Positions 2-20,707 of a stretch of DNA of 64,000 nucleotides are shown here, one piece after another; positions within the stretch are counted from its first letter, which is position 1; each line of letters opens with the position of its first letter. The stretch is from Candidatus Eiseniibacteriota bacterium (lineage in GTDB: Bacteria; Eisenbacteria; RBG-16-71-46; JABDJR01), in NCBI GenBank assembly GCA_963762255.1, contig CAVXKA010000001.1, forward strand, positions 416,001 through 480,000, in the 5' to 3' direction. The notes under the pieces were generated by a model. That model ran no database searches and was not told the DNA's origin. It saw only the letters and a program-made list of their open reading frames with translations. A program made the translations under genes and the position numbers.

Positions 2-1999
2 ATCGATCTCGCCCATCCCGACTTTCGCAACGCCGACGGCACCTCCCGCGTGGAGTGGGTGTGGGATCAGAACGATCCCATCGGGCCCAATCTGGGCGGG
101 GTCTACGATTACGGAACGGTGTGGGCCTCCGCCGCCATCAACGCAGGCACCACGCGGCAGCAGGACACCTACGGCCACGGCACGCACGTGGCGGGGATCG
201 CCGCGGGCAGCGGCCGCGCCAGCGGCGGGACGGTCGCTCCGTACACCTACGTGGGGGTCGCCCCGGAGGCCGACCTCGTCATCGTCAACACCGACTTCTC
301 GACCGGCGGCGTCATCGACGCGGTGCAGTGGATCCAGGGAGTCGCGGAGGCGATGGGACGTCCGTCGGTGGTGAACCTCTCCCTCGGCTCGCAGTTCGGC
401 TCGCACGACGGCACCGATCAGCTCGACGTCGCGTTTCGGGCGCTCAGCGGTCCCGGCAAGATCATCGTGGCTTCCGCGGGCAACGAAGGGAATGCGGGGA
501 TCCACGCCGAGGCCTTGGTGCCCGCCGGCGGCTCTCTCAACTTGCAGTTCACCATCGGCCCCTACGCCGCCAAGCCGGGCAACACCGGATCCGCGCAGCA
601 GGATGCGCTCATCATCGAGAGCTGGTATCCCGGGGCGCAGACGCTCACCTTCCAGGTCACCTCGCCGCGCAGCTTCAGCTCGAACACGATCGGCCTCAAC
701 CAGGAGGTCACCAAACAGACCAACGACGGGACGATCTACGTCGGTGTGGTCCGGGCGGTCCAGAACAACGACAACACCTGCGAGATCGATCTGTGGGACT
801 CCAACGCCACGTATCCTCCGTACGCGGGAACATGGACGGTGCGGGTGAACAACCCGGGGGCGACGGCGGTGCCGATCGACTTCTGGATCCCCTACGACGC
901 GCTCGGCGGCGGCGAGGCGCTGACCCACTGGGCGACCTACGAGGCCGCCCGGGAGACGGTCGGAAGCCCCGCTACGTCGGACTCGGTGATCGCAGTCGCC
1001 GCCTACGTCAGCAAGTCGAGTTGGCCCTACGGACAGAGCTCGATCTGCAGCTACGATCCGCCGCCCCCCTTGGGCAGCCTCGCCTCGTTCTCGAGCCGCG
1101 GACCTCGCCGCGACGGCGCGCTCAAGCCCGATATTGCCGCACCGGGAATGGGCATCGCCTCGGCGTGGTCCTCGACCGGAGATCCCTACTTCTACGACAA
1201 CGTGGCCTGCGCCAAGACCAGCGACGGCTATCACGTGGTGAGCCAGGGCACGAGCCAATCCTCTCCGCACATCGCGGGAGTGGTGGCCTTGATCCTGGAG
1301 AAGCACCCCACCGACGCAAACCGCCAGGTGCTCGCGCGCCTCAGGAACTCCGCGCGCAACGACGCGTGGACGGGGACGGTGCCCAATTGGAACTACGGCT
1401 ACGGCAAGGTCGACGCGCAGGACGCGATCGACGCTTCGACCCCGGTGCGGCTCCTCGCGATGGGCGCGGCCTGGACCGACGGCGCGGCGACGGTGAGCTG
1501 GACGGTGGCCGAAGCCCAGGTCGGCGCGCAGTACCAGGTCGAGCGAAGCGCGCGCGAGGACGCGGACTTTAGCCCCGCGAGCGAAATGCTCAGCGGCGGG
1601 CCTTCGTTCGCGTGGATCGACGAGAGCCCCGATCTCGACGAACCCTGGTATCGCGTCATCGCGTTCGCACCGGACGGCGGGCGCGAGGTGCTGGGGACGG
1701 TGCGCCTAGAAGGGTTGCCCACCGTCCTGCGGCTCGGGCAGAACGCGCCCAACCCGTTCACCGCGAGCACGCGCCTCTCGTTCTCGCTCGATCGCGCGCG
1801 GGACGTGCGGGTCGATGTGGTCGATGTGAGCGGGCGGCGAGTGACCACGCTGGCGACAGGACTCTTCGCGGCGGGACCGCATGTCCTCGACTGGGACGGC
1901 CGCGACGCCCAGGGGCGGCCGGCGGCGGCCGGCGTCTACTTCTGCCGCCTTCGCGCGGACGACACCACGCTCACGCGACGCATGGTGCTGAAGCAATGA
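2..1999 (+). CDS. S8 (subtilisin-like) serine peptidase with C-terminal FlgD-Ig-like sorting domain, 5'-truncated by window edge
   Basis: Frame open from base 2 (IDLAHPDF...); HGTHVAGIAAG, SAGNEG, KPDIAAPG and GTSQSSPHIAG motifs; C-terminal NAPNPF...WDGRD...GVYFCRL. Confidence 0.92.
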   Translation: MDLAHPDFRNADGTSRVEWVWDQNDPIGPNLGGVYDYGTVWASAAINAGTTRQQDTYGHGTHVAGIAAGSGRASGGTVAPYTYVGVAPEADLVIVNTDFSTGGVIDAVQWIQGVAEAMGRPSVVNLSLGSQFGSHDGTDQLDVAFRALSGPGKIIVASAGNEGNAGIHAEALVPAGGSLNLQFTIGPYAAKPGNTGSAQQDALIIESWYPGAQTLTFQVTSPRSFSSNTIGLNQEVTKQTNDGTIYVGVVRAVQNNDNTCEIDLWDSNATYPPYAGTWTVRVNNPGATAVPIDFWIPYDALGGGEALTHWATYEAARETVGSPATSDSVIAVAAYVSKSSWPYGQSSICSYDPPPPLGSLASFSSRGPRRDGALKPDIAAPGMGIASAWSSTGDPYFYDNVACAKTSDGYHVVSQGTSQSSPHIAGVVALILEKHPTDANRQVLARLRNSARNDAWTGTVPNWNYGYGKVDAQDAIDASTPVRLLAMGAAWTDGAATVSWTVAEAQVGAQYQVERSAREDADFSPASEMLSGGPSFAWIDESPDLDEPWYRVIAFAPDGGREVLGTVRLEGLPTVLRLGQNAPNPFTASTRLSFSLDRARDVRVDVVDVSGRRVTTLATGLFAAGPHVLDWDGRDAQGRPAAAGVYFCRLRADDTTLTRRMVLKQ

Positions 2000-2027
2000 G
2001 CCTCGCGAACGATTGGAGGCTGAGACG

Positions 2028-2516
2028 ATGAACGGACAAGAGCTTCACCTTCTCGTCAACCACGTCCCCGTCATCGGATCGATGGGCGCGTTCCTGCTTC
2101 TGGCCATAGCATCGGTCACGCAGTCGAAGGCGCTGACGAGGACCGCGCTGGCGTTCACCGTGCTGGTCGGGGTGAGTTCCGCCGTCGCGTTCCTCACGGG
2201 GGAGCCCGCCGAGGAGGTCGTCGAGCACCTCCCGGGCATCGTGACCGGCGCGATCGAGCACCACGAGGAGATGGCCGACCGCGCGTTGTGGCTGGGGATC
2301 GTGACCGGCGTTGTGGGGTTGGCGAGCCTGTACTTGGGCCGGCGTCACCCCGGAAAGCGATCGGCGGTGCTGCCAAGCCTCGTCCTCATGATGGCGCTCG
2401 TGGCGCTCATGGCTTGGACCGCGCACCTGGGAGGCAAAATCCATCGCCCGGAGCTCACGGGCGCCGGCGCGGTGATCGCCCCCGGTGGCGAAGAAGCGCG
2501 CGGCGACGATGACTGA
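2028..2516 (+). CDS. Membrane protein (DUF2231-like)
   Basis: HLLVNHVP start, about 4 hydrophobic helices, HHEEMA and TAHLGGKIHRPE motifs; GGAGG RBS. Confidence 0.7.
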   Translation: MNGQELHLLVNHVPVIGSMGAFLLLAIASVTQSKALTRTALAFTVLVGVSSAVAFLTGEPAEEVVEHLPGIVTGAIEHHEEMADRALWLGIVTGVVGLASLYLGRRHPGKRSAVLPSLVLMMALVALMAWTAHLGGKIHRPELTGAGAVIAPGGEEARGDDD

Positions 2517-10670: not shown

Positions 10671-11291
10671 CTATCGACCGTTCGCGGCGCGCTCCTCCAC
10701 CGGCGCGAGCCCGAGCGTCTCCACCGCCGCGGCCAGCCGCGACTGCCTGTCGGGATCGGGCGCGAGCGCCTTTCCGACGGCCTCGGAGAGCGGGAGCGGT
10801 TCCTCCGTGGCGAAAAACGCCAGCCGCGCGAACACGTCGCGGAACCGGCGCTCGTTCCAACTGCCCGACCGCACATCCAACTCGCCCAGATGATCGAGGA
10901 ACACTTCCACGCCTTCGTTCCGCGAGTGGACGGCCACGTCGAGGGCGCCGCGTCCCAGAAGATCGCGCACGCTCACCATCGCGGCCAGCAGCGCGGCCGG
11001 CGACACTTCGGAAGCCACCCACTCGGTCGGCCGCTCGCCGTACTCCACGAGGACGACGCCGGGCCGCCCGGAGAGGGATCGCACGACATCGAGAAACGCC
11101 TGCGTGATCCGCGGGTGATCGCCGCGCGCGGCGAAATGGATGACCCCGCCCGGTTCGGTGCGCACACGGTAGCGGGGAACCGCCGGGGCCTCGGGGCGTT
11201 CCACGCGGCGACGCCCGAAGAGCCCGCGCCACCCGGAGAAGCCGCACCACTTCGGCAGGGCGCGGAGCTTCGCGATCCGGCCGATCCTCAC
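10671..11291 (-). CDS. Hypothetical protein
   Basis: GTG start overlaps amylase stop (GTGA); globular-looking sequence in the last 206 codons of the long 10671..12938 ORF. Confidence 0.6.
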   Translation of the reverse strand: MRIGRIAKLRALPKWCGFSGWRGLFGRRRVERPEAPAVPRYRVRTEPGGVIHFAARGDHPRITQAFLDVVRSLSGRPGVVLVEYGERPTEWVASEVSPAALLAAMVSVRDLLGRGALDVAVHSRNEGVEVFLDHLGELDVRSGSWNERRFRDVFARLAFFATEEPLPLSEAVGKALAPDPDRQSRLAAAVETLGLAPVEERAANGR

Positions 11292-14200
11292 CGCAGCACG
11301 ACCCGCGTGGAGGAGATCGAAACGCCGTTCGCGGCAACGCGCGCGAAGTAGACACCGCGCGCGAGCGAGCCCGCGCCAAAATCCAGGCGCACTTCGGCCG
11401 GACCCGCGGGGAGCATTCCCGCGAACGGCGTCGCCACCCGACGGCCGCGGATGTCGAACAGATCGAGTGTGACCATGGCCTCGCGCTCCAACCGGAACCG
11501 CGCGGTTCCGGCGCCGGACAGTGGATTCGGAAACACCGAGAGAAACGGCGGAGGCGGCTCGCCGCCCCCTCCGGGCGTCCCGGTAGAGGTATCGGCGGCC
11601 ACGCGCACGATTCGAGCGACGGCGGTCCCGCCGCTGGAGTCGGTGAAGGGTTCGCCCGATCCGGTGTCCACCACGTAGAGGGCGCCGTCGGGGCCGATGG
11701 TCAGGCAGTCGCTGGCGAAGAGGTTGCCGAACCCGCTGGCCAGCACGCTGATCGCGCCGGCGGGCGTGATGCGCAGCACGGTCTCCGTGGCGATGTTGGC
11801 CACGAGCAGGTCGCCCTCGAACTGCCCTCTCGTGTCCACCACCATTGCGCACACGCCGTTCAAGAGGGTCGGATTCTGCACGAAGGTGCTCAAGGCACCG
11901 GTGGAGTCGGCGAAGAGGATCGACGAGGTGCCGTCGATGCTCGATGCGTACGCGGCCAAATCGGGATCGGCGACCAGGAGCCGCCGGCCGAAACCGAACA
12001 TTCCCAGCGCGGGGGCCACTCCCTCGGCGCCGTTGACCGGCGACGCGAACGGCACGTAGCCGGTGCCCGCTTCGTAGCGCTCCACCCGGTTGGATGTGTT
12101 GCTGACCAGGTAGGGAAACCCGCCGAGCGGCCCGGCGGGCAGACAGGCCAGGGCGCCGGTGTTGGTGGCGTTCGTGCCGGCGGCGATCTGGCTCACCACA
12201 CCCGCCGAGGTCACGCGAAGAAGTCCGTTGGGATCGGCGATCACGAGGTCCCCCGCGAAGGCGCCCGCATGATCGAAGTCGAGCCCTTCGGGCTTGCTCA
12301 GGAACGAACCCGACGCCAGCACGCTCACGGTGCCGGCGGTCGTGATGCGCAGCACGCGATTGTTCAGCGCGTCGCCCACATAGATGTTGTCGCTCCACGC
12401 ACCGCTCTCGCCGGCCGCGATCCCCATCGGCACGCCGATCCCGCTTCCCGACGCGAACTCGGTGGCGTGGAAACCGGAGGCCACGGTGAGACCCGGGATC
12501 CCACCCGCGATCGTGAAGAACGTCTCGAAGGCGACCCGCATCGGCGTGGCGTCGGAGGCGGTCGCCGAGGCGTCCAGGTGCAACGCGATCACGCTCCCCT
12601 CGGACCAGTCCTGCGACGGCGTGAACACCACCGCGCTGTCGGCCTCCCAGGTGAAGGCGCCGGGCACCGCAGGAATCACCGAGAACGCGGCCTCGACCGA
12701 CGCGTGGTTCATCGCCCGGTTGAAGCCGAGTCGCAGCGCGGGCCGCGGCGAGGCCGTCGTGGCCGCATGCGCCGGCGACTGCGTGTCCACCGCCGGCGTG
12801 GCACCGGTAACCGCCGACGACCGAACGAGGATGCGTGCATGCCGCGCGGGCACAGTCAGGCTGATGGATCCGCCGGAACCCACGCTCAAGCTGAACGACG
12901 GATCGCGCAGATCGGCGAGCGCTGTCCCGAAGGTCCATCCCGTCGAAAGGGATCCGCTCGAGCGCGCGGCCGAGGAGGAGTTCAACACCACCACGACGTC
13001 CTCGGTGGCGCCCGCGCGGCGGTACGCGTAGATGCCGGCGCCGGCTTCGCTCTTCAACTCCGTGAAGGCCCCGGTGCGCAGCGCGTCGTAGCGCGAGCGG
13101 ATGTCGTTCAAGTCACGCGTCCGCTTGTAGAGCGGGTGGGTCATGTTGAAGTTGTCGCCCAGGCTCGGGCCGTACTCCCACGCCCCGTCCCACATGTCTT
13201 CGCGATCGTAGGGATCGCCCCCACCGTCGAACGCCTGCTCGGTCCCCTGGTAGACGCAGGGCACGCCTCGCGTGGTGAGCATGAAGTCGAGGGCCGCGTT
13301 GAGCTTGGTAGCGTCCTGGGCTGCCCCGCCGGAAGAGAGGAATCGCGCCACATCGTGGTTGTCGAGAAAGGTGACCAGCCTCTCCTGCGCGGCGGGGTCA
13401 TAGTTGCCGAGCGCGGCGTAACGATCGGTGAGAAGCGACGTGCGCTGGCCGAAGGCGAAGACATTGTCCATCGTCCACTTCATCGGGAAGTAGAGCACCG
13501 AATCGAGCGTGAAGGCTCCTCCCGCCTTGGTCCCGGTGTAGGAACCGCACTTGGCGTCGCTCCCGTCGAACACCTCGCCGTAGAAGAAGATGTTGTTCTT
13601 GCCGAGCGACGCGGCGTGGGCGCGCACGGCCGGCGTCCACGTCTGCCAGAACGGCATGTCCACGTGCTTGACGGTGTCGATGCGAAAACCGTCGCAGTCC
13701 GACACGTCGATGAGCCAGTTCATGGCATCCACGAGTCCCGCGACCACGGACGGATCCTCGGTCTTGAGGTCGTCCAGGCTGGAGAGCTCCCCCAACACCT
13801 GGTCGGGGTCCACCCAGTTCTGGATCCCCCCGTTGTTGTGGAACCAAGCCAGGTTATTGAAGAGCCCTCCCGGCCGCTTGCTGGTCCGCCACCGCAGCAC
13901 GTAGGGGCTCGGGTCATCGTGGAACGCGGGGTATCCGGAAGTGCCGGAGTCGATCATGTCCCCCATGTGGTTGCAGACGATGTCGACCACAAGGTACATG
14001 CCGCGAGCGTGCAGCGCGTCGGCGAGCGCGCGCAATTCCGCCTGGGTGCCGAAGTGGGGGGCGATCGCCTTGAAGTCCCGCGCGGCGTAGCCGTGGTGCT
14101 CCCCCCAGACGTTGACCACCACCGGGCTGATCCAGATCGCCTTGAAGCCCAGCCCCTGGATGTAGTCGAGTTTCTCCATGACCCCCGCGAAGTCCCCGCC

Positions 14201-14473
14201 GTGCACGTTGCCCGAGTACCACGAGCCGTCGCCGGCGAACCCGGGGTCGTAAGAGCCCTCCGCGTTGTTGTTGGCCGGATTGCCGTCGAAGAACCGGTCG
14301 GTGAAAATCTGGTAGATCGGCACGTCGCGCCAATCGGCCGGCGACGGTGTATACACGGCGGGTGCAGCGACTGCGGCGGGCGCGCCGAGCGGCACCCGCG
14401 GCGCGAGCGGCAAAGCAAGCGCGAGCGTGAACGCCAACGTGAGCGCAGATGCGATGACAATCCGCCGCATCAT
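11288..14473 (-). CDS. Secreted GH13 alpha-amylase-family protein with Ig-like, beta-propeller and FlgD-Ig-like C-terminal domains
   Basis: Signal peptide; IYQIFTDRF, GGDFAG, DIVCNH, DGFRIDTVKH, FYGEVF, FLDNHD (GH13 regions I-IV); ATGA coupling with upstream gene. Confidence 0.93.
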   Translation of the reverse strand: MMRRIVIASALTLAFTLALALPLAPRVPLGAPAAVAAPAVYTPSPADWRDVPIYQIFTDRFFDGNPANNNAEGSYDPGFAGDGSWYSGNVHGGDFAGVMEKLDYIQGLGFKAIWISPVVVNVWGEHHGYAARDFKAIAPHFGTQAELRALADALHARGMYLVVDIVCNHMGDMIDSGTSGYPAFHDDPSPYVLRWRTSKRPGGLFNNLAWFHNNGGIQNWVDPDQVLGELSSLDDLKTEDPSVVAGLVDAMNWLIDVSDCDGFRIDTVKHVDMPFWQTWTPAVRAHAASLGKNNIFFYGEVFDGSDAKCGSYTGTKAGGAFTLDSVLYFPMKWTMDNVFAFGQRTSLLTDRYAALGNYDPAAQERLVTFLDNHDVARFLSSGGAAQDATKLNAALDFMLTTRGVPCVYQGTEQAFDGGGDPYDREDMWDGAWEYGPSLGDNFNMTHPLYKRTRDLNDIRSRYDALRTGAFTELKSEAGAGIYAYRRAGATEDVVVVLNSSSAARSSGSLSTGWTFGTALADLRDPSFSLSVGSGGSISLTVPARHARILVRSSAVTGATPAVDTQSPAHAATTASPRPALRLGFNRAMNHASVEAAFSVIPAVPGAFTWEADSAVVFTPSQDWSEGSVIALHLDASATASDATPMRVAFETFFTIAGGIPGLTVASGFHATEFASGSGIGVPMGIAAGESGAWSDNIYVGDALNNRVLRITTAGTVSVLASGSFLSKPEGLDFDHAGAFAGDLVIADPNGLLRVTSAGVVSQIAAGTNATNTGALACLPAGPLGGFPYLVSNTSNRVERYEAGTGYVPFASPVNGAEGVAPALGMFGFGRRLLVADPDLAAYASSIDGTSSILFADSTGALSTFVQNPTLLNGVCAMVVDTRGQFEGDLLVANIATETVLRITPAGAISVLASGFGNLFASDCLTIGPDGALYVVDTGSGEPFTDSSGGTAVARIVRVAADTSTGTPGGGGEPPPPFLSVFPNPLSGAGTARFRLEREAMVTLDLFDIRGRRVATPFAGMLPAGPAEVRLDFGAGSLARGVYFARVAANGVSISSTRVVLR

Positions 14474-15711
14474 CGCGCCCTCACCGCACGCACGGTGCGC
14501 ACGCTTCCTCGGCGGTCTTCCGCGCGAATCCAGTAGATCCCGGGACCGACGTCGAGCCCCGCGGCATCGCGCCCGTCCCATCGCCAGGGTTGTCCCCCCA
14601 CCGCTTCATGCCGCACCACTCGTCCCTCCGCGTTAAGCACCCACATGCGATCCGCCTTCCATGCATCCGTGGACCCCACCGCCACCGAACCCAGAAACGG
14701 GCTCGGCCAGGCGACCAGCCCCGCCATCGTCGCAGGCCCGAGCTCGCCCACTGCAAGCTGCGACGTGTCCACCAACAGCTCACCCATCACGAACCCGGTC
14801 ATCGTCGCCCGGCTCACCCCCAGGAGGTGCGCGATCGTCGCGCCGACATCCTCCTGACGGCGGGGTTGAGAACTGATCACCCCGGGCAGGAAGTCCGGGC
14901 CTCGCGCGATCAGGAAGAGCGTGCGGCAACCCGGGCAGCCGTCGCCGTGCGCTGTGAACCCACCATGCGCGTCGTCGTGACGGCCGTGATCGGCGGTCAC
15001 GATCAGGTCGGTGTCCCCGGCCAGAATCGGGTCGGCCTGGATGAAGTCCCAGAGCGCGCCGGCCAGGGAGTCGGCGCGGCTCAGCGCGCTCAGGTAACCG
15101 GTCCAGCTTCCGGTGTGCGCGGCCAGATCCACCGAGGCAAAGTTGAGGCACATGAAAGTCGGGTGATCGGCCGCCAGCACCGCGGTCGCGGCGCCGAAGG
15201 TCGTGGGGTCATTGCGCAGGGCGACGTTCAACGAGGCACCGTAGGCGGCCCCAAACCCCGGGTAGGTGCTGTACGTGAGGGCCGAGAACTTGTCCTTCCC
15301 TCCGATCATCCAGACCGAGGACTGAGGGAGCCCCTTTTCCTTGCGGAGCAATTCGAAGAGCGTGGGTCGGGTCGGCCGCTGCGTCGCGTCGTTGGCGATG
15401 AGCTGCGTCGTGCCGGTGATGAGGGTGGAGTGCCCGGGGAGGGTCTCCGTCTTCCCCATGTTCGAGAAGGCCGTGATCCACCCGCCGGAGGGGGCGAGCA
15501 TGCCGCTCAGGACCGGCGCGCGCGGGTATCCGGGCTCGGCAAGGAACTCCGTCTGGCGCGGCCCATCGATGACCAGAAGCACGACATGGCCTGCGGCGGC
15601 CCACGCCGAGGCTGCGGCGCCAAAAATCAGGCCGCAGGTGACCGCGACCACCAGGGCGAAGCGTCGTCTCAGCCCCCCGTCAGGGGGCCTGCGCCAGGAA
15701 AAGCGGGTCAT
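14470..15711 (-). CDS. Secreted alkaline-phosphatase-superfamily metalloenzyme with FlgD-Ig-like C-terminal domain
   Basis: VVLLVIDG, TLPGHSTLITG, DLAAH, TADHGRH motifs; WDGRD...GIYW tail. Confidence 0.8.
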   Translation of the reverse strand: MTRFSWRRPPDGGLRRRFALVVAVTCGLIFGAAASAWAAAGHVVLLVIDGPRQTEFLAEPGYPRAPVLSGMLAPSGGWITAFSNMGKTETLPGHSTLITGTTQLIANDATQRPTRPTLFELLRKEKGLPQSSVWMIGGKDKFSALTYSTYPGFGAAYGASLNVALRNDPTTFGAATAVLAADHPTFMCLNFASVDLAAHTGSWTGYLSALSRADSLAGALWDFIQADPILAGDTDLIVTADHGRHDDAHGGFTAHGDGCPGCRTLFLIARGPDFLPGVISSQPRRQEDVGATIAHLLGVSRATMTGFVMGELLVDTSQLAVGELGPATMAGLVAWPSPFLGSVAVGSTDAWKADRMWVLNAEGRVVRHEAVGGQPWRWDGRDAAGLDVGPGIYWIRAEDRRGSVRTVRAVRAR

Positions 15712-15754: not shown

Positions 15755-15889
15755 CCGGTCGACCTCATGCCGATCGGGACGGTACAGAGGGCACCCACCC
15801 GTCCCCGCTCGGAAGGCAGTGGATCACGGCAACCCCTCCTGAGCCGCTCCGCCGCCAACAGCCCGCGACAACCTTTCGAACAGGACGAC

Positions 15890-16888
15890 ATGAAGTCTAC
15901 CAGGAAGCAGAGCGTTTCTTACGTGCGCTCCGGGGCCCTCACCCGGATATTGCTCGTGCTCACCTGGGTCCTCCTCGCCGTCGCCACCCCTCGGGGGCTC
16001 CACGCCGACTTCTCCGTCTTTCGCGCGCCCTCTCACATCGTGAGCCTCTTCGCCCTCCCGGGTGAGGACGTGCCCTTCGATCTGGCCACCTACGCGGGCA
16101 CGGTGCCGAAGCTTCTCGATCGCTACCAGATCGAATCCTCGGATGGGATCCAGGTGGTGCTCGAAGACAAGTGCCGATTCGTTCTGACCGCGCCAGGGGA
16201 GGTCGGAATCTACCCGGTCAGCTTCCAGGAGCTCACGGAACCCGGCATCCCCAAGCCTCTCCCCTACCGGGTCCAACTCGTCGTCATGCGCCCCGCCACC
16301 GAGGCGGTCAACGGGGTTCTCAACGGGTACCCCATCGGGGTCTATCCGACCGGTGACTCGAACCAACCTTGGCAATTCGAGTTCCCGCGAGGTTTCGTGG
16401 AGATCACGGAGACGAACCGGAGCACCCTGCTCAGCGACCACATCAGCCTCTCCGACATCGAGTGCAAGCTCGACGCCCCGTTCCCGCGGTACGCTGCTGT
16501 TCGGACCTCCCTGCTGATGAAGCTCGAAGGTCTGGCCGACCAGCTCTTGCAGCGCGGCTTGCCCGGCGACGCGATCAAGGTGCTGAGCGGATTCCGCACC
16601 CCCGGTTACAACTCCGAAGTCGGTAACCGCACGACCTTCAGCCGACACGTCGTGGGGGACGCCGCCGACATCTACATCGACCATGACGGGAACGAAGCCA
16701 TGGACGATCTCAACGGCGATGGGCGGGTGAACCGCCGCGATGCCATGCTCCTGCTCGAAATCGTGGACGAGATGGATCACTCCGAGGACTACTCGGCCCT
16801 CGTGGGCGGCGCGTCCGCCTACCGCACCACGGGCTCCCACGGCCCCTTCGTCCACGTCGATACCCGAGGCTACCCGGCCCGCTGGTAG
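15890..16888 (+). CDS. Peptidase M15 (D-Ala-D-Ala carboxypeptidase/YcbK-like)
   Basis: Signal/TM segment; SGFRTPGYN, SRH-x6-D (SRHVVGDAADI), FVHVDTRG motifs. Confidence 0.88.
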   Translation: MKSTRKQSVSYVRSGALTRILLVLTWVLLAVATPRGLHADFSVFRAPSHIVSLFALPGEDVPFDLATYAGTVPKLLDRYQIESSDGIQVVLEDKCRFVLTAPGEVGIYPVSFQELTEPGIPKPLPYRVQLVVMRPATEAVNGVLNGYPIGVYPTGDSNQPWQFEFPRGFVEITETNRSTLLSDHISLSDIECKLDAPFPRYAAVRTSLLMKLEGLADQLLQRGLPGDAIKVLSGFRTPGYNSEVGNRTTFSRHVVGDAADIYIDHDGNEAMDDLNGDGRVNRRDAMLLLEIVDEMDHSEDYSALVGGASAYRTTGSHGPFVHVDTRGYPARW

Positions 16889-16969: not shown

Positions 16970-18400
16970 GTGAAACCCAGAGTCAAGCTTATAGTCGGCC
17001 TCGTCATCGCCGCGGCGTCGGTGCTCGTGCTCATTTCCCTGGTGCGCCAGGGCAAGTGGGATCTCGAGCACGTGCTGCTGTGGACCGTGGTGTGCCTGGT
17101 AAGCGAGCTCTTCTGGGTGAAGACGCCGAGCGGGGACTCGGTTCAGAGTCTCGCCGCCACCGCCAAGCTCTCGGCTATCCTCATTCTCGACGTCTGGGCG
17201 GCCCTGCTCACCATCTTCGTGAGCACGGTGGTGGGGAACTTCATCTTCCGCCGCTCGAAATGGTATCGCGCGGTCTACAACGGCTCACAGCTCCTGCTGG
17301 CCGGCGCCGCGGCGGCCCTCGTGTATCAGGCCCTCGGTGGGACCCCCTTCCTGAACACGTTCAGTCTTCCCGGCGGACAACGCATGGAAGCGGTCGCCGG
17401 AAGCCTGGCCGATCGTCGGTTCCTCTCCGCGTTCCTCCTCGCCAGCATCAGCTACATCATGGTCAACAACACGCTCATGGCCTGGCTCATGAGCGCGATG
17501 ACCGGCCGGCGCATGACCACGCTGTGGAAAGAGAACTGCCTCTATGCGGAGGAAGTCCAGAGCAGCCTGGCTCTCGTGCTCCTGAGCCCGCTTCTCGTGC
17601 TGCTCTACGGGACGCTCGGCGTGCCCGGACTGCTCATCCTCTTCGCGTGCCTGGCGCTCGTGCACGCCGCCAATCGCCGCTACCTCGCGGTGATCCGAGC
17701 TCAGGAAGACCTACTCCGCTCGGAACGCATGGCAGCGATGGGCGAGATGGCCGAGGAGATCGGCCGCAGCCTCGGCCACTACCTGAACGATCTCAAGGTC
17801 AGCGCGAACAGGGTGTTCCAGCGCGCCCGTCATGCGGGCGGGGAGAAGGTCCTGCACAGCGCGGAGGTCATCCACATCAACGTGGGGAACATGTCGGCTC
17901 TGGTCGACGGCCTCGCCGCCTTCTCCCATCAGGAGACCCACAAGGTCCCCACCGACCTCAACGAGCTGGTCCGCCGCACCGTGGACTTCGTCCGGCCGCA
18001 GAATCGATTCGACGGGATCCATTTCAAGATCACTCCCGACCCGATCCTGCCCATGGTGAGCATCGACCCCGCGCAGTTGCAGCAGGTCTTCATCAACCTC
18101 CTGACCAACGCCGCCGATGCCCTCGCCGAGGTAGACCGCCCGGTAAAGAAGATCTTCGTCGAGACCCACTACGATCCGGGCGCTCAGCGCGTGCGGGTCG
18201 CGTTCTCCGACAACGGACCCGGCGTCCCCGACGCCAACCTGAACCGCATCTTTGAACCGCACTTCACCACGAAGATCACCGGGCACGGCTTCGGGCTCTC
18301 CACCGCCTTCCGTATCGCCGCCAACCATCGTGGGCTAATCCGGGCGAGCAACATCCCCGGCGGCGGCGCCAACTTCCTCATCGACCTGCCGAACTCCTAG
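16970..18400 (+). CDS. Membrane sensor histidine kinase (MASE9-like multi-TM input, HATPase_c) with degenerate H-box
   Basis: About 8 TM helices with RAVYNGSQ...YQALGG and YIMVNN motifs; N box QVFINLLTNAADA, G1 DNGPG, F IFEPHFTTK, G2 GHGFGL; H-box reads MGEMAEEIGRSLGHYL. Confidence 0.85.
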   Translation: MKPRVKLIVGLVIAAASVLVLISLVRQGKWDLEHVLLWTVVCLVSELFWVKTPSGDSVQSLAATAKLSAILILDVWAALLTIFVSTVVGNFIFRRSKWYRAVYNGSQLLLAGAAAALVYQALGGTPFLNTFSLPGGQRMEAVAGSLADRRFLSAFLLASISYIMVNNTLMAWLMSAMTGRRMTTLWKENCLYAEEVQSSLALVLLSPLLVLLYGTLGVPGLLILFACLALVHAANRRYLAVIRAQEDLLRSERMAAMGEMAEEIGRSLGHYLNDLKVSANRVFQRARHAGGEKVLHSAEVIHINVGNMSALVDGLAAFSHQETHKVPTDLNELVRRTVDFVRPQNRFDGIHFKITPDPILPMVSIDPAQLQQVFINLLTNAADALAEVDRPVKKIFVETHYDPGAQRVRVAFSDNGPGVPDANLNRIFEPHFTTKITGHGFGLSTAFRIAANHRGLIRASNIPGGGANFLIDLPNS

Positions 18401-18407
18401 CCCCTTG

Positions 18408-18451
18408 TGTCGTCAAGCGGCGACACCATCTGTCGTCAAAAATTGACGACA
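18408..18451. promoter_or_regulatory. Tandem palindromic sites (candidate enhancer-binding-protein UAS)
   Basis: Perfect 9-3-9 palindrome TGTCGTCAA-AAA-TTGACGACA (18431-18451) plus related TGTCGTCAAGCGGCGACA (18408-18425), 160-210 bp upstream of a sigma54 promoter. Confidence 0.55.
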
Positions 18452-18562
18452 CCCTAACGCTTTGCCGGTTCGTAGTTTAAGCTGATGGTCGCGCACGGTG
18501 TCACCTGTTGTTGACGGCGCGCACCGAGACACCCCCTCCACCCGCCGCGCACAACTGCCAGC

Positions 18563-18587
18563 TAACTTGTTGTATTAATTAGTGTTG
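18563..18587. promoter_or_regulatory. AT-rich IHF-like site
   Basis: TAACTTGTTGTATTAATTAGTGTTG; minus strand ATACAACAAGTTA resembles WATCAANNNNTTR; lies between palindromes and -24/-12 promoter. Confidence 0.45.
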
Positions 18588-18614
18588 AGGCATTTGCCCC
18601 AGGGACATTGCAAA

Positions 18615-18630
18615 TGGCACGGCCGTTGCG
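18615..18630 (+). promoter_or_regulatory. Sigma54 (-24/-12) promoter
   Basis: TGGCAC-GGCCG-TTGCG matches TGGCAC-N5-TTGCW with exact GG-N10-GC spacing. Confidence 0.8.
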
Positions 18631-18696
18631 TATATGGGTCAGCGTGGTTGGCAAGAGGCCCTGAAGACCTGAACCCGAAGAAGGGGGGAGACAACA

Positions 18697-18789
18697 ATGC
18701 TAGGCATCATCACGAAGATGCTCGCTCTCGCCGGTGAGTGGCAGTGGTACGGCGAGTGGCAGTGGTTTGGCGAATGGCAGTGGTTCTAG
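18697..18789 (+). CDS. 30-aa Trp-rich tandem-repeat peptide MLGIITKMLALAGEWQWYGEWQWFGEWQWF (candidate signalling peptide/RiPP precursor)
   Basis: GGGGAG RBS 6 nt before ATG; three GEWQW[Y/F] repeats with synonymous codon variation (GGT/GGC, GAG/GAA, TTT/TTC); own promoter and terminator. Confidence 0.85.
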   Translation: MLGIITKMLALAGEWQWYGEWQWFGEWQWF

Positions 18790-18800
18790 TCGCCTGACCG

Positions 18801-18829
18801 GCGGGGGCACAGGCCCCCGCTTCTCTTTT
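18801..18829 (+). terminator. Rho-independent terminator after the peptide gene
   Basis: GCGGGGGC-ACAG-GCCCCCGC stem-loop followed by TTCTCTTTT. Confidence 0.85.
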
Positions 18830-19099
18830 GAGCCCGGTCTTCGCGCCTGCGGAGGCCGGCTCCAGCAGACGACTCGACATCGATCGGCTTGAAGTTCCGC
18901 GACCCAGCGGTGCCGGCTTCCGGCAGAGCATCGTGAGGTCTGTCTGCGGAGCCATTCCCCAATGGCTCCGCAGGCGCGTTTTCGCCCCCTCCATCTCGCC
19001 CCACGGCTTTCCCCACCCCGGGGTCCAGACAGTCGGTCATCCTGCCGAAAACCAAAGGGAGAATTGCTCACTCCAGGCACTCACCCGGTGAAACACCAC

Positions 19100-20707
19100 A
19101 TGCCCGTCTCCACCGATTCCATCCTTCAAACCACGGTGGACCTCACTGCGCCTGCCCCGCTCGCGCGGCAGGCGGACATCCTGAACCGTTTCACCGGAAC
19201 CCCAGCCGTACTTGCCACGGTCGAGGCGGCGACCCGGGATGAGGATCCTCGCACTCGGTTTCGCAAGCTCGCCGAACTGTTCCGCAAGGCGGACCCCGAA
19301 TCCGCGGTGGAGATCCTGAAGATCGCCGGCAAGCTCTGCGTGCGGGAGGAGGCAAGCGGCCTTCGCCTGCTGTGCAGCTTCCTCGAGGTGAAGCGGCCGG
19401 GCGTGGAGGTGCTGCACCAGTTGGCCGCACTCTCCAGCCTGGAACGCGTCTCCCTGCGCATCGTGCAGGGAACCTGGCGCGAGCCGGACGGTTCGGATCA
19501 TGCGAGCTCCGCCCTTCCGATTGCGGAAGTGCTGCGCGAGGCCGCCGAGGTGGGAGCGATATCTCTCGAAGGGCAGGAGCTCCCCCGAGACGCCGCGACG
19601 ATTCGCGGGGCCCTGCAAGATCTGCGCGAGTGGTTTCGCGGCGTCGAGACCCGTGTCAGCGACGGCCAGAAGCCCGACATCCGCGCGCTTCAGTTTGTGG
19701 CCCAGATCGGCATGCTCGAGATCAATCTCATGGAAAAACGGGTCTCGGAGATTGCCGGGTCCATCGACCCCTACGACGTGCGCGGTATGGGCCGCCTCAT
19801 GCCGATCGTGAGCCGCTACGACCAGGACATCGAGCACATGAAGAGCGTGGTGTCCCGCCTCACCACCTATGAGCCCTTCTACGAACGGCTGATCTCGATG
19901 GAGCATGCGGTCTCCTCCAGCGAGATGGAAAAGATTCAGCGGCGGTTGCTCGCCGATCCCTTGGCGCAGCCGCTCGGACTGATCGTCCGAGGCATGCGGG
20001 AGAACCCCATTCTCGACCGGGAGTTCATCTTCCTGGTCTCTCTCGTCCACCAGATCTGGACGCTCCGCTCGCTCACGGTCGAGAACGCGGGACCACGCCC
20101 CGACGCGCTCTCCGTCTTTCTCGAGGTGGTGCGGCACGGCCGCGGCGGGAGCGGCGTGCGGTTGACGCTGGAACAGGATGTCGCGGATTCGATCTGGCCG
20201 ACCGTCCAGACGTGGGGGGTGCTGCGGAGGGCGCCGGACGCGTTCGAGGTCCGCTATCGGGAGGACCGGGCCCTCGACTTCATTCACCCCGATGGCACGC
20301 CGCGCCTCCCGGCACGCCCTGACGAGCGCCAGCCGGCCGAACTCTCCCTCAAGGAACTCGTTCGGGTTCAGATCAACAACGAGCCGTTCGTGCTGGGGAT
20401 TCTGGACAACCCCAAGGCCACCCAACTCCCCGGGCTCATGGCGATGGTCGTGAACCAGACGCGCAGCCTTCGGGTGCTCGACCGGATCATGCGGGAACGT
20501 TCGCTCTACACCGGTCCGGCCAACAAGGACGTGCCGAGGCTCCTGCTCATGAGCCCGGCGCGGATCTCGATGAACAGCCTCAAGCGGTTCATCCACGTTC
20601 GGTTCGTGAGCAAGGTGGACCTGGAGAGGCTGTCACGGCGAGGTACGGAGGTCCGGGAAGAAGTCCGGCGGGAGATCCTGGCCTACTTGGGCACGTTGCG
20701 GAAGTGA
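19100..20707 (+). CDS. Hypothetical protein (largely alpha-helical)
   Basis: Long ORF with protein-like composition; start uncertain (ATG 19100 chosen). Confidence 0.75.
   Translation: MPVSTDSILQTTVDLTAPAPLARQADILNRFTGTPAVLATVEAATRDEDPRTRFRKLAELFRKADPESAVEILKIAGKLCVREEASGLRLLCSFLEVKRPGVEVLHQLAALSSLERVSLRIVQGTWREPDGSDHASSALPIAEVLREAAEVGAISLEGQELPRDAATIRGALQDLREWFRGVETRVSDGQKPDIRALQFVAQIGMLEINLMEKRVSEIAGSIDPYDVRGMGRLMPIVSRYDQDIEHMKSVVSRLTTYEPFYERLISMEHAVSSSEMEKIQRRLLADPLAQPLGLIVRGMRENPILDREFIFLVSLVHQIWTLRSLTVENAGPRPDALSVFLEVVRHGRGGSGVRLTLEQDVADSIWPTVQTWGVLRRAPDAFEVRYREDRALDFIHPDGTPRLPARPDERQPAELSLKELVRVQINNEPFVLGILDNPKATQLPGLMAMVVNQTRSLRVLDRIMRERSLYTGPANKDVPRLLLMSPARISMNSLKRFIHVRFVSKVDLERLSRRGTEVREEVRREILAYLGTLRK

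Follow-up and report, generated by a model that had tools for sequence, protein, structure and literature searches.

A Trp-rich micropeptide gene with a predicted sigma-54 promoter beside a histidine-less MASE9 kinase-like gene in a family of Candidatus Eiseniibacteriota

Introduction

NifL, a homologue of the sensor kinases, acts as neither kinase nor phosphatase and binds NifA under nucleotide control (PMC10372690). A locus with some resemblance to this system is described here from a 64,000-nucleotide stretch of DNA of a Candidatus Eiseniibacteriota bacterium (assembly GCA_963762255.1, contig CAVXKA010000001.1, positions 416,001 to 480,000 of the forward strand). This whole stretch is referred to below as the window, and coordinates are those of the window except where a genome or locus label precedes them. 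Here a gene for a 30-residue, Trp-rich micropeptide, placed behind a predicted sigma-54 promoter, follows a gene for a polytopic kinase-like protein which carries a MASE9 membrane domain and has lost its phospho-acceptor histidine. As far as the searches reach, this pair of genes is undescribed, and a full-text literature search with the unit motifs of the peptide (GEWQW, EWQWF, AWEWL and QWEWL) returned no relevant paper. The kinase-like protein and NifL are both kinase homologues with a GHKL domain; NifL acts without phosphotransfer and has a sigma-54 promoter as its output (PMC10372690), as the kinase-like protein would have. The differences are also clear. NifL is soluble, senses through PAS and FAD and is encoded beside nifA, whereas the protein here is polytopic, has a MASE9 domain and lacks an adjacent activator gene. 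By analogy, the kinase-like protein may exert a NifL-like control over a sigma-54 activator.

The authors who defined the MASE9 domain suggest that it binds ligands within the membrane, and their preprint lists only one experimentally characterised MASE9 protein, with no ligand given (bioRxiv 10.1101/2021.11.05.467447). A peptide of comparable kind is known from ComS/XIP of streptococci, where very short and often unannotated open reading frames (ORFs) give rise to an active C-terminal Trp-containing heptapeptide, for example GLDWWSL with its 'WW' motif (PMC5131902). The micropeptide gene is likewise a very short, often unannotated ORF for a Trp-containing product, a resemblance of kind with no demonstrated homology. 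XIP, however, returns to the cytoplasm, where it binds an Rgg/ComR regulator and not a membrane sensor, and it is a single unit rather than a set of repeats.

The agr and comCDE types are peptide-pheromone two-component loci of Gram-positive bacteria. As in these loci, a small gene adjoins that for a polytopic membrane sensor belonging to the kinase superfamily, the peptide differs from lineage to lineage, and the precursor has no Sec signal but a hydrophobic or amphipathic N-terminal head. In contrast to them, the conserved block described here contains no AgrB-like or C39/ABC gene for processing and export, a sigma-54 promoter stands where those loci use a LytTR or OmpR-type regulator, and the phospho-acceptor His is missing from the sensor. 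The organism, moreover, is diderm, and its peptide is built of tandem units. MgrB and SafA are small membrane proteins which act on PhoQ. They share with the arrangement proposed here a peptide of fewer than 50 residues, induced by the pathway and acting within the membrane on a sensor. They differ in being single-pass proteins with a full transmembrane helix which are not encoded beside the kinase, whilst the head of the micropeptide has only 12 residues and the remainder consists of Trp/acid repeats. At the level of the transcript, Qrr promoters depend on sigma-54 and its activator, and RNAIII combines a 26-codon peptide gene (hld) with regulatory hairpins. The transcript described below is similarly short, under strong regulation and provided with a terminator of its own, although there is no sequence or Rfam similarity to either RNA and a regulatory role of its 3' region is suggested by conservation only.

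The micropeptide gene and its conservation

The micro-ORF (18697-18789, forward strand) has 30 codons, from an ATG at 18697 to a TAG at 18787-18789. Its product is MLGIITKMLALA-GEWQWY-GEWQWF-GEWQWF, a hydrophobic head of 12 residues followed by three G-E-W-Q-W-[YF] units, with six Trp among the 30 codons. The gene is single-copy and chromosomal. In relatives the ORF has 24-36 codons and the consensus head is M-[LFI]-x-[IL]-[IV]-x5-L-x, after which come 2-4 units of the pattern [G]-[E/D/Q/A/T]-[W/T/I]-[Q/E/V]-W-[hydrophobic or aromatic]. The second Trp of the unit is invariant and the first is usual, being replaced by Thr or Ile in some relatives; each unit has a single acidic residue, and most begin with Gly. 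By composition the micropeptide is acidic, Trp-rich and amphipathic. Reading of the sequence reveals neither a signal peptide nor a double-glycine leader. AlphaFold2 (AF2) predicts a single helix of moderate confidence (predicted local distance difference test, pLDDT, 70; predicted template modelling score, pTM, 0.27). A complex prediction of MASE9 residues 1-245 with the micropeptide scored 0.09 against a mark of 0.32, which weighs neither way on binding. A protein atlas contains the micropeptide letter for letter, the best clusters there scoring 0.75-0.77 and bearing no names.

Within a gene the proportion of synonymous differences between units (pS) is 0.754 and that of non-synonymous differences (pN) is 0.068, over 32 unit pairs from 12 genes, two copies with irregular units (G002 and L165) being excluded from the set. 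Since synonymous sites are saturated, the likeness of the units is kept by selection at the level of the peptide and not by recent homogenisation of the DNA. The first-pass annotation of the window, made from the letters alone, had argued for such selection from synonymous variation among the three repeats, and these values bear it out. The units of one gene shift together between lineages, from GEWQW to GQWEW, GAWEW, GTWEW or GETQW, and this extends to DWVW. Unit number varies from gene to gene (2, 3 or 4), and the ORF ends where a unit ends in 14 of 14 genes as well as in all 16 proteins of the profile search given below. The micropeptide gene is real and under strong purifying selection on the peptide. 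Its ends at unit boundaries, its 2-4 units and their likeness inside a gene, combined with their differences between lineages, would agree with units that are modular or released.

The gene is found about 300 nucleotides downstream of the kinase orthologue in all eight genomes of the family to which the window belongs (family f1). Seven of these copies were recovered by peptide search and the eighth, in genome G002, by ORF scan; there the kinase is 37% identical and the peptide is diverged, with three DWVW units behind TGGCACG-N4-TTGC. As the order comprises only ten species genomes, metagenomes were added. They gave 79 loci, 16 of which were examined, the remaining 63 matching the catalytic half only at no more than 38% identity. 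Eleven of the 16 are of the histidine-less type described below. All seven of these with more than 400 nucleotides of downstream sequence (six of them distinct) carry promoter, Shine-Dalgarno site, peptide and hairpin, and the other four end too early for the peptide to be assessed. The whole architecture of promoter, Shine-Dalgarno site, ORF and hairpin is thus intact in 8/8 family genomes and seven metagenome loci, a degree of conservation which places the observation beyond chance. The ORF itself, its strong ribosome-binding site, the -24/-12 promoter and the palindromes had all been picked out in the first pass; each is confirmed in the sequence.

Outside the family the picture is different. 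A peptide search of 33 genomes of other families gave no credible match, those at E 0.35 and 0.77 lying inside long ORFs, and no micropeptide-like ORF was found beside the 22 kinase-homologue loci of other families which were scanned. The expectation that kinase homologues would have an adjacent Trp-rich ORF therefore holds for the family (8/8) and its metagenome relatives (7/7) and fails for other families (0/22). A profile of 13 peptides run against 1.84 billion representative proteins found 16 proteins at E<=0.001, all of the same build.

A back-translated (WxWxGx)2WxW DNA pattern was also run over genome contigs. It gave at least 119 stretches, and the frames read were repeat DNA with matches in the wrong frame only; the one match under a Candidatus Eisenbacteria title (L056) lies on the strand opposite to an ORF of Ala/Lys repeats. 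On a contig of an Anaerolineaceae metagenome-assembled genome (L096, about 1840-2100, forward strand), a hydrophobic, signal-anchor-like start is followed by many GGWLWS hexapeptide units, with pattern matches at 1933-2031; this may be an unrelated Trp-repeat small protein. In a sister-family genome (L011, G008:C3), the sequence past a His-bearing kinase homologue contains the sigma-54-like site CGGCAC-N5-CTGC and then a lipoprotein-type gene, with no micropeptide. This layout may be an older arrangement of a kinase with a sigma-54-driven neighbour.

The promoter and upstream region

Upstream of the micro-ORF lies a -24/-12 promoter of the sigma-54 type (18615-18629, forward strand), with TGGCAC at 18615-18620, five intervening nucleotides and TTGC at 18626-18629, which is the consensus spacing. 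The GG-N10-GC core is kept in the eight family genomes and in seven metagenome loci. Transcription is predicted to start near 18641, and the resulting 5' untranslated region (18641-18696, forward strand) is purine-rich with no predicted structure, RNAalifold giving 0 pairs over 13 sequences. It contains a strong, purine-rich Shine-Dalgarno site, AAGGGGGGA, at 18681-18689 (forward strand; by sequence reading). No sigma-70-like promoter was found within 18300-19200.

Three inverted repeats precede the promoter. The first (18408-18425) and the second (18431-18451) are candidate activator sites; the position of the first is kept in the family alignment, and the second, also in that alignment, is a near-perfect 9-N3-9 palindrome. 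The third (18500-18515) is of the GTCA-N8-TGAC type, lies about 115 nucleotides upstream of the -24 element and has conserved GTC...GTTGAC columns. Between the repeats and the promoter is an AT-rich stretch (18563-18595), partly conserved in the family alignment, which is a possible bending site. Searched with a stricter pattern, the 21-nucleotide palindrome at 18431-18451 has one copy in the 4.14-Mb genome.

The genome has one rpoN gene, 23 strong sigma-54 activator genes (Sigma54_activat) and 21 strict -24/-12 sites, from which it follows that sigma-54 transcription is in use in this organism. The features of a sigma-54 dependent promoter, namely the spacing, rpoN and the inverted repeats, are thus all present, and dependence on sigma-54 is predicted. 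Elsewhere in the genome a strict TGGCAT-N5-TTGC site (G000:C1:557423, outside the window) lies about 170 nucleotides upstream of a GroES-like ORF, and others of the strict sites are found ahead of lipoprotein genes and of a gene for a type IV pilin-like protein (C3:124245).

The 3' hairpins and RNA evidence

Ten nucleotides past the stop codon is hairpin 1, a 9-bp GC stem followed by a T-run (18800-18829, forward strand), which may be a terminator or a processing or stability hairpin. One terminator-like site alone is not above chance, shuffled sequences averaging 0.8. A hairpin occupies this place in all loci, and in three metagenome loci it has no T-run, so that the transcript there probably reaches hairpin 2. 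This second hairpin (18944-18973, forward strand) is the likely true 3' end, with 100% of alignment cells paired and three compensatory pairs; a T-run of 6-8 follows it in 6 of 12 printed loci and in 5 of the 11 rows of alignment A6. Between the two stands a 6-bp hairpin (18908-18933, forward strand) with the loop GCUUCCGG(G/C)A, in which five of six pairs show two-sided changes, 69.7% of cells being paired. Its loop is almost invariant in the alignment.

For this 6-bp hairpin and hairpin 2 together, the two 3' hairpins, 8 of 15 pairs are changed on both sides and none of 500 shuffles matches the observed score. A covariance model of this hairpin pair gives one match per genome in seven of the eight family genomes and nothing at E<0.005 outside the family. 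The element was undetected in G002, where only 229 nucleotides separate the ORF from the contig end, and Rfam yields only sub-threshold noise on 18350-19150. A conserved, locus-specific 3' hairpin pair extends the unit to about 18973. The terminator attributed to the gene in the first pass is indeed there as a hairpin and T-run at 18800-18829, but with hairpin 2 following, the unit may not end at that point.

Public sequencing runs carry matches to the locus. Twenty of 24 listed runs contain 0.10-0.23 of a 701-nucleotide stretch (17 of the 20 on record as RNA; 14 studies). Four RNA runs from four studies gave 11 contig pieces, all within 18676-18949, and two RNA-library contigs agree with the window at every position, one over 18704-18824 and the other over 18713-18832. 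No contigs lie over 18400-18675 or 18950-19100 in those four runs, which, coming from contigs, is not evidence of absence. Since hairpins can break assemblies, a contig which stops at hairpin 1 or 2 does not map an end of the RNA. The micropeptide gene is apparently transcribed, strand, ends and level not being derivable from such data. In one run (X2), three contigs of relatives cover 18714-18789; the sequence upstream of the units differs and the codon at 18748-18750 is changed, so that several peptide variants co-occur in one sample.

The histidine-less MASE9 neighbour

The gene preceding the micropeptide unit (16970-18400, forward strand) encodes, from Pfam and alignment, a MASE9 membrane domain, a degenerate dimerisation and histidine phosphotransfer (DHp) domain and an intact HATPase_c domain. 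Pfam gives HATPase_c at 1.4e-19, MASE9 (PF20972) at 26.4 bits with a cut-off of 24.3, and no HisKA. The MASE9 match, which upholds an earlier guess of a MASE9-like domain, is borderline; it covers residues 54-231 in the polytopic N-terminal region, and relatives score 16.3-28.9 bits. The closest NCBIfam models are AtoS and ZraS, with NifL also listed (7.7e-22, far below its cut-off), all being sub-cut-off matches. The AtoS and ZraS kinases partner with sigma-54 activators.

The H-box of the protein reads EEIGRSLG in place of (A/E)EI(G/A)HEL. In an alignment of 28 loci, from which two cut by contig ends (L018 and L029) were left out, the column of the phospho-acceptor His holds R, Q or V in 8/8 family proteins and His in 20/20 homologues of other families. 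The residues which follow are also altered in the family proteins, and the single His close by in the window protein lacks conservation, whereas every one of the 28 retains the N, G1, F and G2 boxes. At the H-box position R, Q, E or L is found in the 11 metagenome proteins of the histidine-less type. All 14 proteins linked to a peptide gene thus have R, Q, V, E or L there, and Pfam HisKA matches none of five histidine-less proteins as against four of four His-bearing homologues. With this His lost, phosphorylation of an activator by the kinase-like protein at the canonical histidine is ruled out. The neighbour is a histidine-less kinase-like protein and, from its residues, not a working histidine kinase. 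The proposal made in the first pass, that a sensor kinase here phosphorylates an enhancer-binding protein, has consequently to be abandoned: the histidine is gone in 14/14, HisKA is found in 0/5 and the window holds no activator gene.

The 14 histidine-less, peptide-linked proteins form one clade, with a Shimodaira-Hasegawa-like approximate likelihood ratio test (SH-aLRT) value of 100 and a stem length of 1.03, in a quick IQ-TREE analysis in which G002 sits on a long branch (1.59) and its exact place is less sure. In the kinase tree a single branch carries both the presence of the peptide and the loss of the histidine. Among the histidine-less proteins mean pairwise identity is 0.58 in MASE9, 0.66 in DHp and 0.72 in the catalytic and ATP-binding (CA) domain. 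The continued conservation of DHp and CA argues that the kinase-like protein is functional. MASE9 is the most variable part of the protein, yet the variability is ordinary for a membrane domain and not hypervariable.

Gene neighbourhood and candidate activators

The conserved gene order, in the family and in metagenome loci, is M15-like peptidase, kinase-like gene, peptide gene and a gene for a 536-residue protein. The first of these, an M15-type cell-wall peptidase-like gene (15767-16888, forward strand; Pfam Peptidase_M15_3 at 25 bits, cut-off 23.2), lies directly upstream of the kinase-like gene in 5/5 family regions compared and in ten metagenome loci, and not in G002/L012. The last (19097-20707, forward strand) lies directly downstream of the peptide unit and encodes an all-helical protein (AF2 pLDDT 78.8). 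This protein has no Pfam, NCBIfam or Protein Data Bank (PDB) sequence match, its best Foldseek hit (E 0.08) being ARM/HEAT-like noise; the protein atlas gives only weak leucine-rich-repeat leads below 0.9, and PADLOC nothing usable. Its gene adjoins the peptide gene in five family genomes and six metagenome loci, and homologues of the protein occur unlinked in two other families without the peptide. Among these four conserved neighbours there is no exporter, peptide-pheromone protease or enzyme for ribosomally synthesised and post-translationally modified peptides (RiPPs), the M15 match belonging to cell-wall peptidase families. Omp85-family genes are present in the genome and imply a diderm envelope.

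Further upstream, the window encodes a large amylase-like protein (11288-14581, reverse strand) and a phosphodiesterase-like protein (14470-15711, reverse strand). The latter has a weak C-terminal FlgD_ig match (E 3.2e-4, below cut-off), and the C-terminal end of the former resembles it by reading only. Such ends may represent a sorting domain.

No cognate response regulator is seen alongside the kinase-like gene: the window contains none of the 23 strong matches to Sigma54_activat, and the flanking genes are those for the M15-like peptidase and the 536-residue protein; stand-alone receiver genes were not searched for. Elsewhere in the genome there are three activators without an N-terminal regulatory domain (AAA domains at C1:339082-339585, C3:129051-129551 and C3:413352-413849). 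A fourth candidate (G000:C2:402082-403437, reverse strand; L248 4083-5438) has a receiver without the acidic pocket and the phospho-acceptor Asp, and its orthologues, in the sister family as in 8/8 family genomes, likewise lack the Asp. As kinases of the sister family keep their His, this receiver-degenerate activator does not track the loss of the histidine and is only a candidate. It adjoins a GAF-type activator. Genome G003 also keeps a canonical MASE9 histidine kinase (L161, G003:C14:2056105-2057472), with H-box and HisKA intact, which sits 2.8 kb upstream of the gene orthologous to that for the receiver-degenerate activator. Its presence is compatible with an origin of the histidine-less protein by duplication.

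Proposed mechanism and alternatives

The locus can be regarded as a lineage-specific regulatory module of two co-inherited parts, the sigma-54 peptide unit and the histidine-less MASE9 protein. In the mechanism which is preferred here, though tentatively, a sigma-54 activator encoded elsewhere would bind the three inverted repeats. The MASE9 protein would control this activator, if at all, by nucleotide-dependent binding, as NifL does with NifA. The micropeptide would partition into the cytoplasmic membrane through its hydrophobic head and interfacial Trp units, and there it may be a ligand or modulator of the MASE9 domain, closing a cell-autonomous feedback loop of the MgrB/PhoQ kind.

A number of observations weigh against this mechanism. 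A search for the partner among the activators of the genome found none that could be assigned, and the palindrome, occurring nowhere else in the genome, offers no clue to a regulon or to autoregulation. The contigs from RNA libraries are a hint of expression and not proof, since neither strand, ends nor level can be read from them and they may include carried-over DNA. Synteny is generally conserved across the family, which makes adjacency by itself weak evidence, and the coincidence of peptide and histidine loss, being one evolutionary event, is a single observation and not a replicated correlation. The membrane residence of the peptide is proposed from composition alone; its 12-residue head is too short to span a bilayer, each unit has an acidic residue, and the confidence of the AF2 helix is only moderate. 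Finally, a variable number of 2-4 like units suits the release of identical units at least as well as it suits an intact peptide.

This last point leads to an amended form of the autoinduction loop, in which the head targets the precursor to the membrane, cleavage by a protease falls before each Gly, and the identical hexapeptides so released are exported and sensed by MASE9. With a sensor that lacks a phospho-acceptor His, transduction in such a loop must be binding-based. It would account well for units which are modular, 2, 3 or 4 to a gene, near-identical in protein within a gene through selection and different between lineages, and for ORFs which all stop exactly at the end of a unit. MASE9 is also the most variable part of the partner (identity 0.58 versus 0.72 for CA), although this variability is ordinary for a membrane domain, and streptococcal precursors with a C-terminal Trp heptapeptide pheromone do exist (PMC5131902). 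On the other hand, neither a signal peptide nor a double-glycine leader can be read in the precursor, the conserved neighbours include no exporter or processing enzyme, a diderm organism sets two membranes in the way, and the sensor lacks the His used by peptide-sensing kinases. Secreted autoinduction is considered unlikely.

Equally open to doubt is the view that the peptide is a stand-alone membrane effector, switched on by a sigma-54 activator and active in envelope stress or as a toxin-like or antimicrobial agent, to which the kinase-like gene is linked by descent or as an upstream regulator. Tight sigma-54 control together with a strong Shine-Dalgarno site would suit a dose-sensitive membrane peptide. 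The Trp-rich amphipathic composition, the single-copy chromosomal gene and the conserved cell-wall peptidase-like gene two genes upstream also favour this view. Trp-rich antimicrobial peptides and most small toxins, however, are cationic or purely hydrophobic, and the micropeptide is acidic. Nor is an immunity, antisense or transporter partner seen, and the coincidence with remodelling of the adjacent sensor is left unexplained.

The 3' region raises the question of whether a regulatory RNA is the main product, its loop pairing with targets or titrating a protein and the peptide being a second function. The conservation of the hairpins (both sides altered in 8 of 15 pairs, and a score equalled by 0/500 shuffles) speaks for it, as do the nearly invariant loop, the confinement of a single-copy element to peptide-bearing genomes and the RNA-library contigs which cover it. 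This is nonetheless improbable: strong protein-level selection on the ORF means that the peptide can be no incidental product, Rfam offers no matching family, and the element was undetected in the 229 nucleotides past the ORF in G002. A RiPP precursor, its Trp units cross-linked or modified by an enzyme encoded elsewhere, is very improbable. Repeated aromatic motifs in a short ORF do resemble multi-core precursors and the Trp and Gly positions are conserved, but a radical-SAM, P450, YcaO or similar gene is absent among the conserved neighbours and a head of 12 residues would be very short as a recognition leader. A Trp-sensing leader peptide attenuating the downstream gene, which six Trp codons in 30 and a hairpin 10 nucleotides past the stop might suggest, can scarcely be credited when Gly, Glu/Gln and N-terminal residues are conserved as well, Thr or Ile replaces the first Trp of each unit in some relatives, no alternative pairing is predicted in the leader, and the downstream gene lacks any link to Trp metabolism and lies behind a second, stronger terminator.

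Concluding remarks

Genes as small as this one escape annotation, and the evidence for the micro-ORF is unusually complete, comprising promoter, Shine-Dalgarno site, terminators, selection, synteny and RNA. The micropeptide family is nevertheless small, with 16 cluster representatives in 1.84 billion proteins. Its kinase-like partner presents a rare and cleanly dated loss of the histidine in a membrane sensor kinase whose ATP-binding domain has been kept. A bolder and decidedly doubtful idea is that of linear-peptide autoinduction in a diderm, in which tandem identical hexapeptides from a leaderless precursor of 24-36 residues would act within the membrane on a MASE9 pseudokinase, which would pass the signal on by binding, and not by phosphorylating, a sigma-54 activator, with a regulatory RNA domain at the 3' end of the transcript. 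If true, this circuit of hexapeptide, MASE9 pseudokinase and 3' RNA would be a signalling architecture without a described counterpart. Were the peptide exported, linear peptide signalling would extend to a little-known diderm lineage. If the two parts act together, they would provide a tractable system in which to study how a membrane sensor can control sigma-54 activators independently of phosphorylation, and the micropeptide would be a first candidate ligand for a MASE9 domain.

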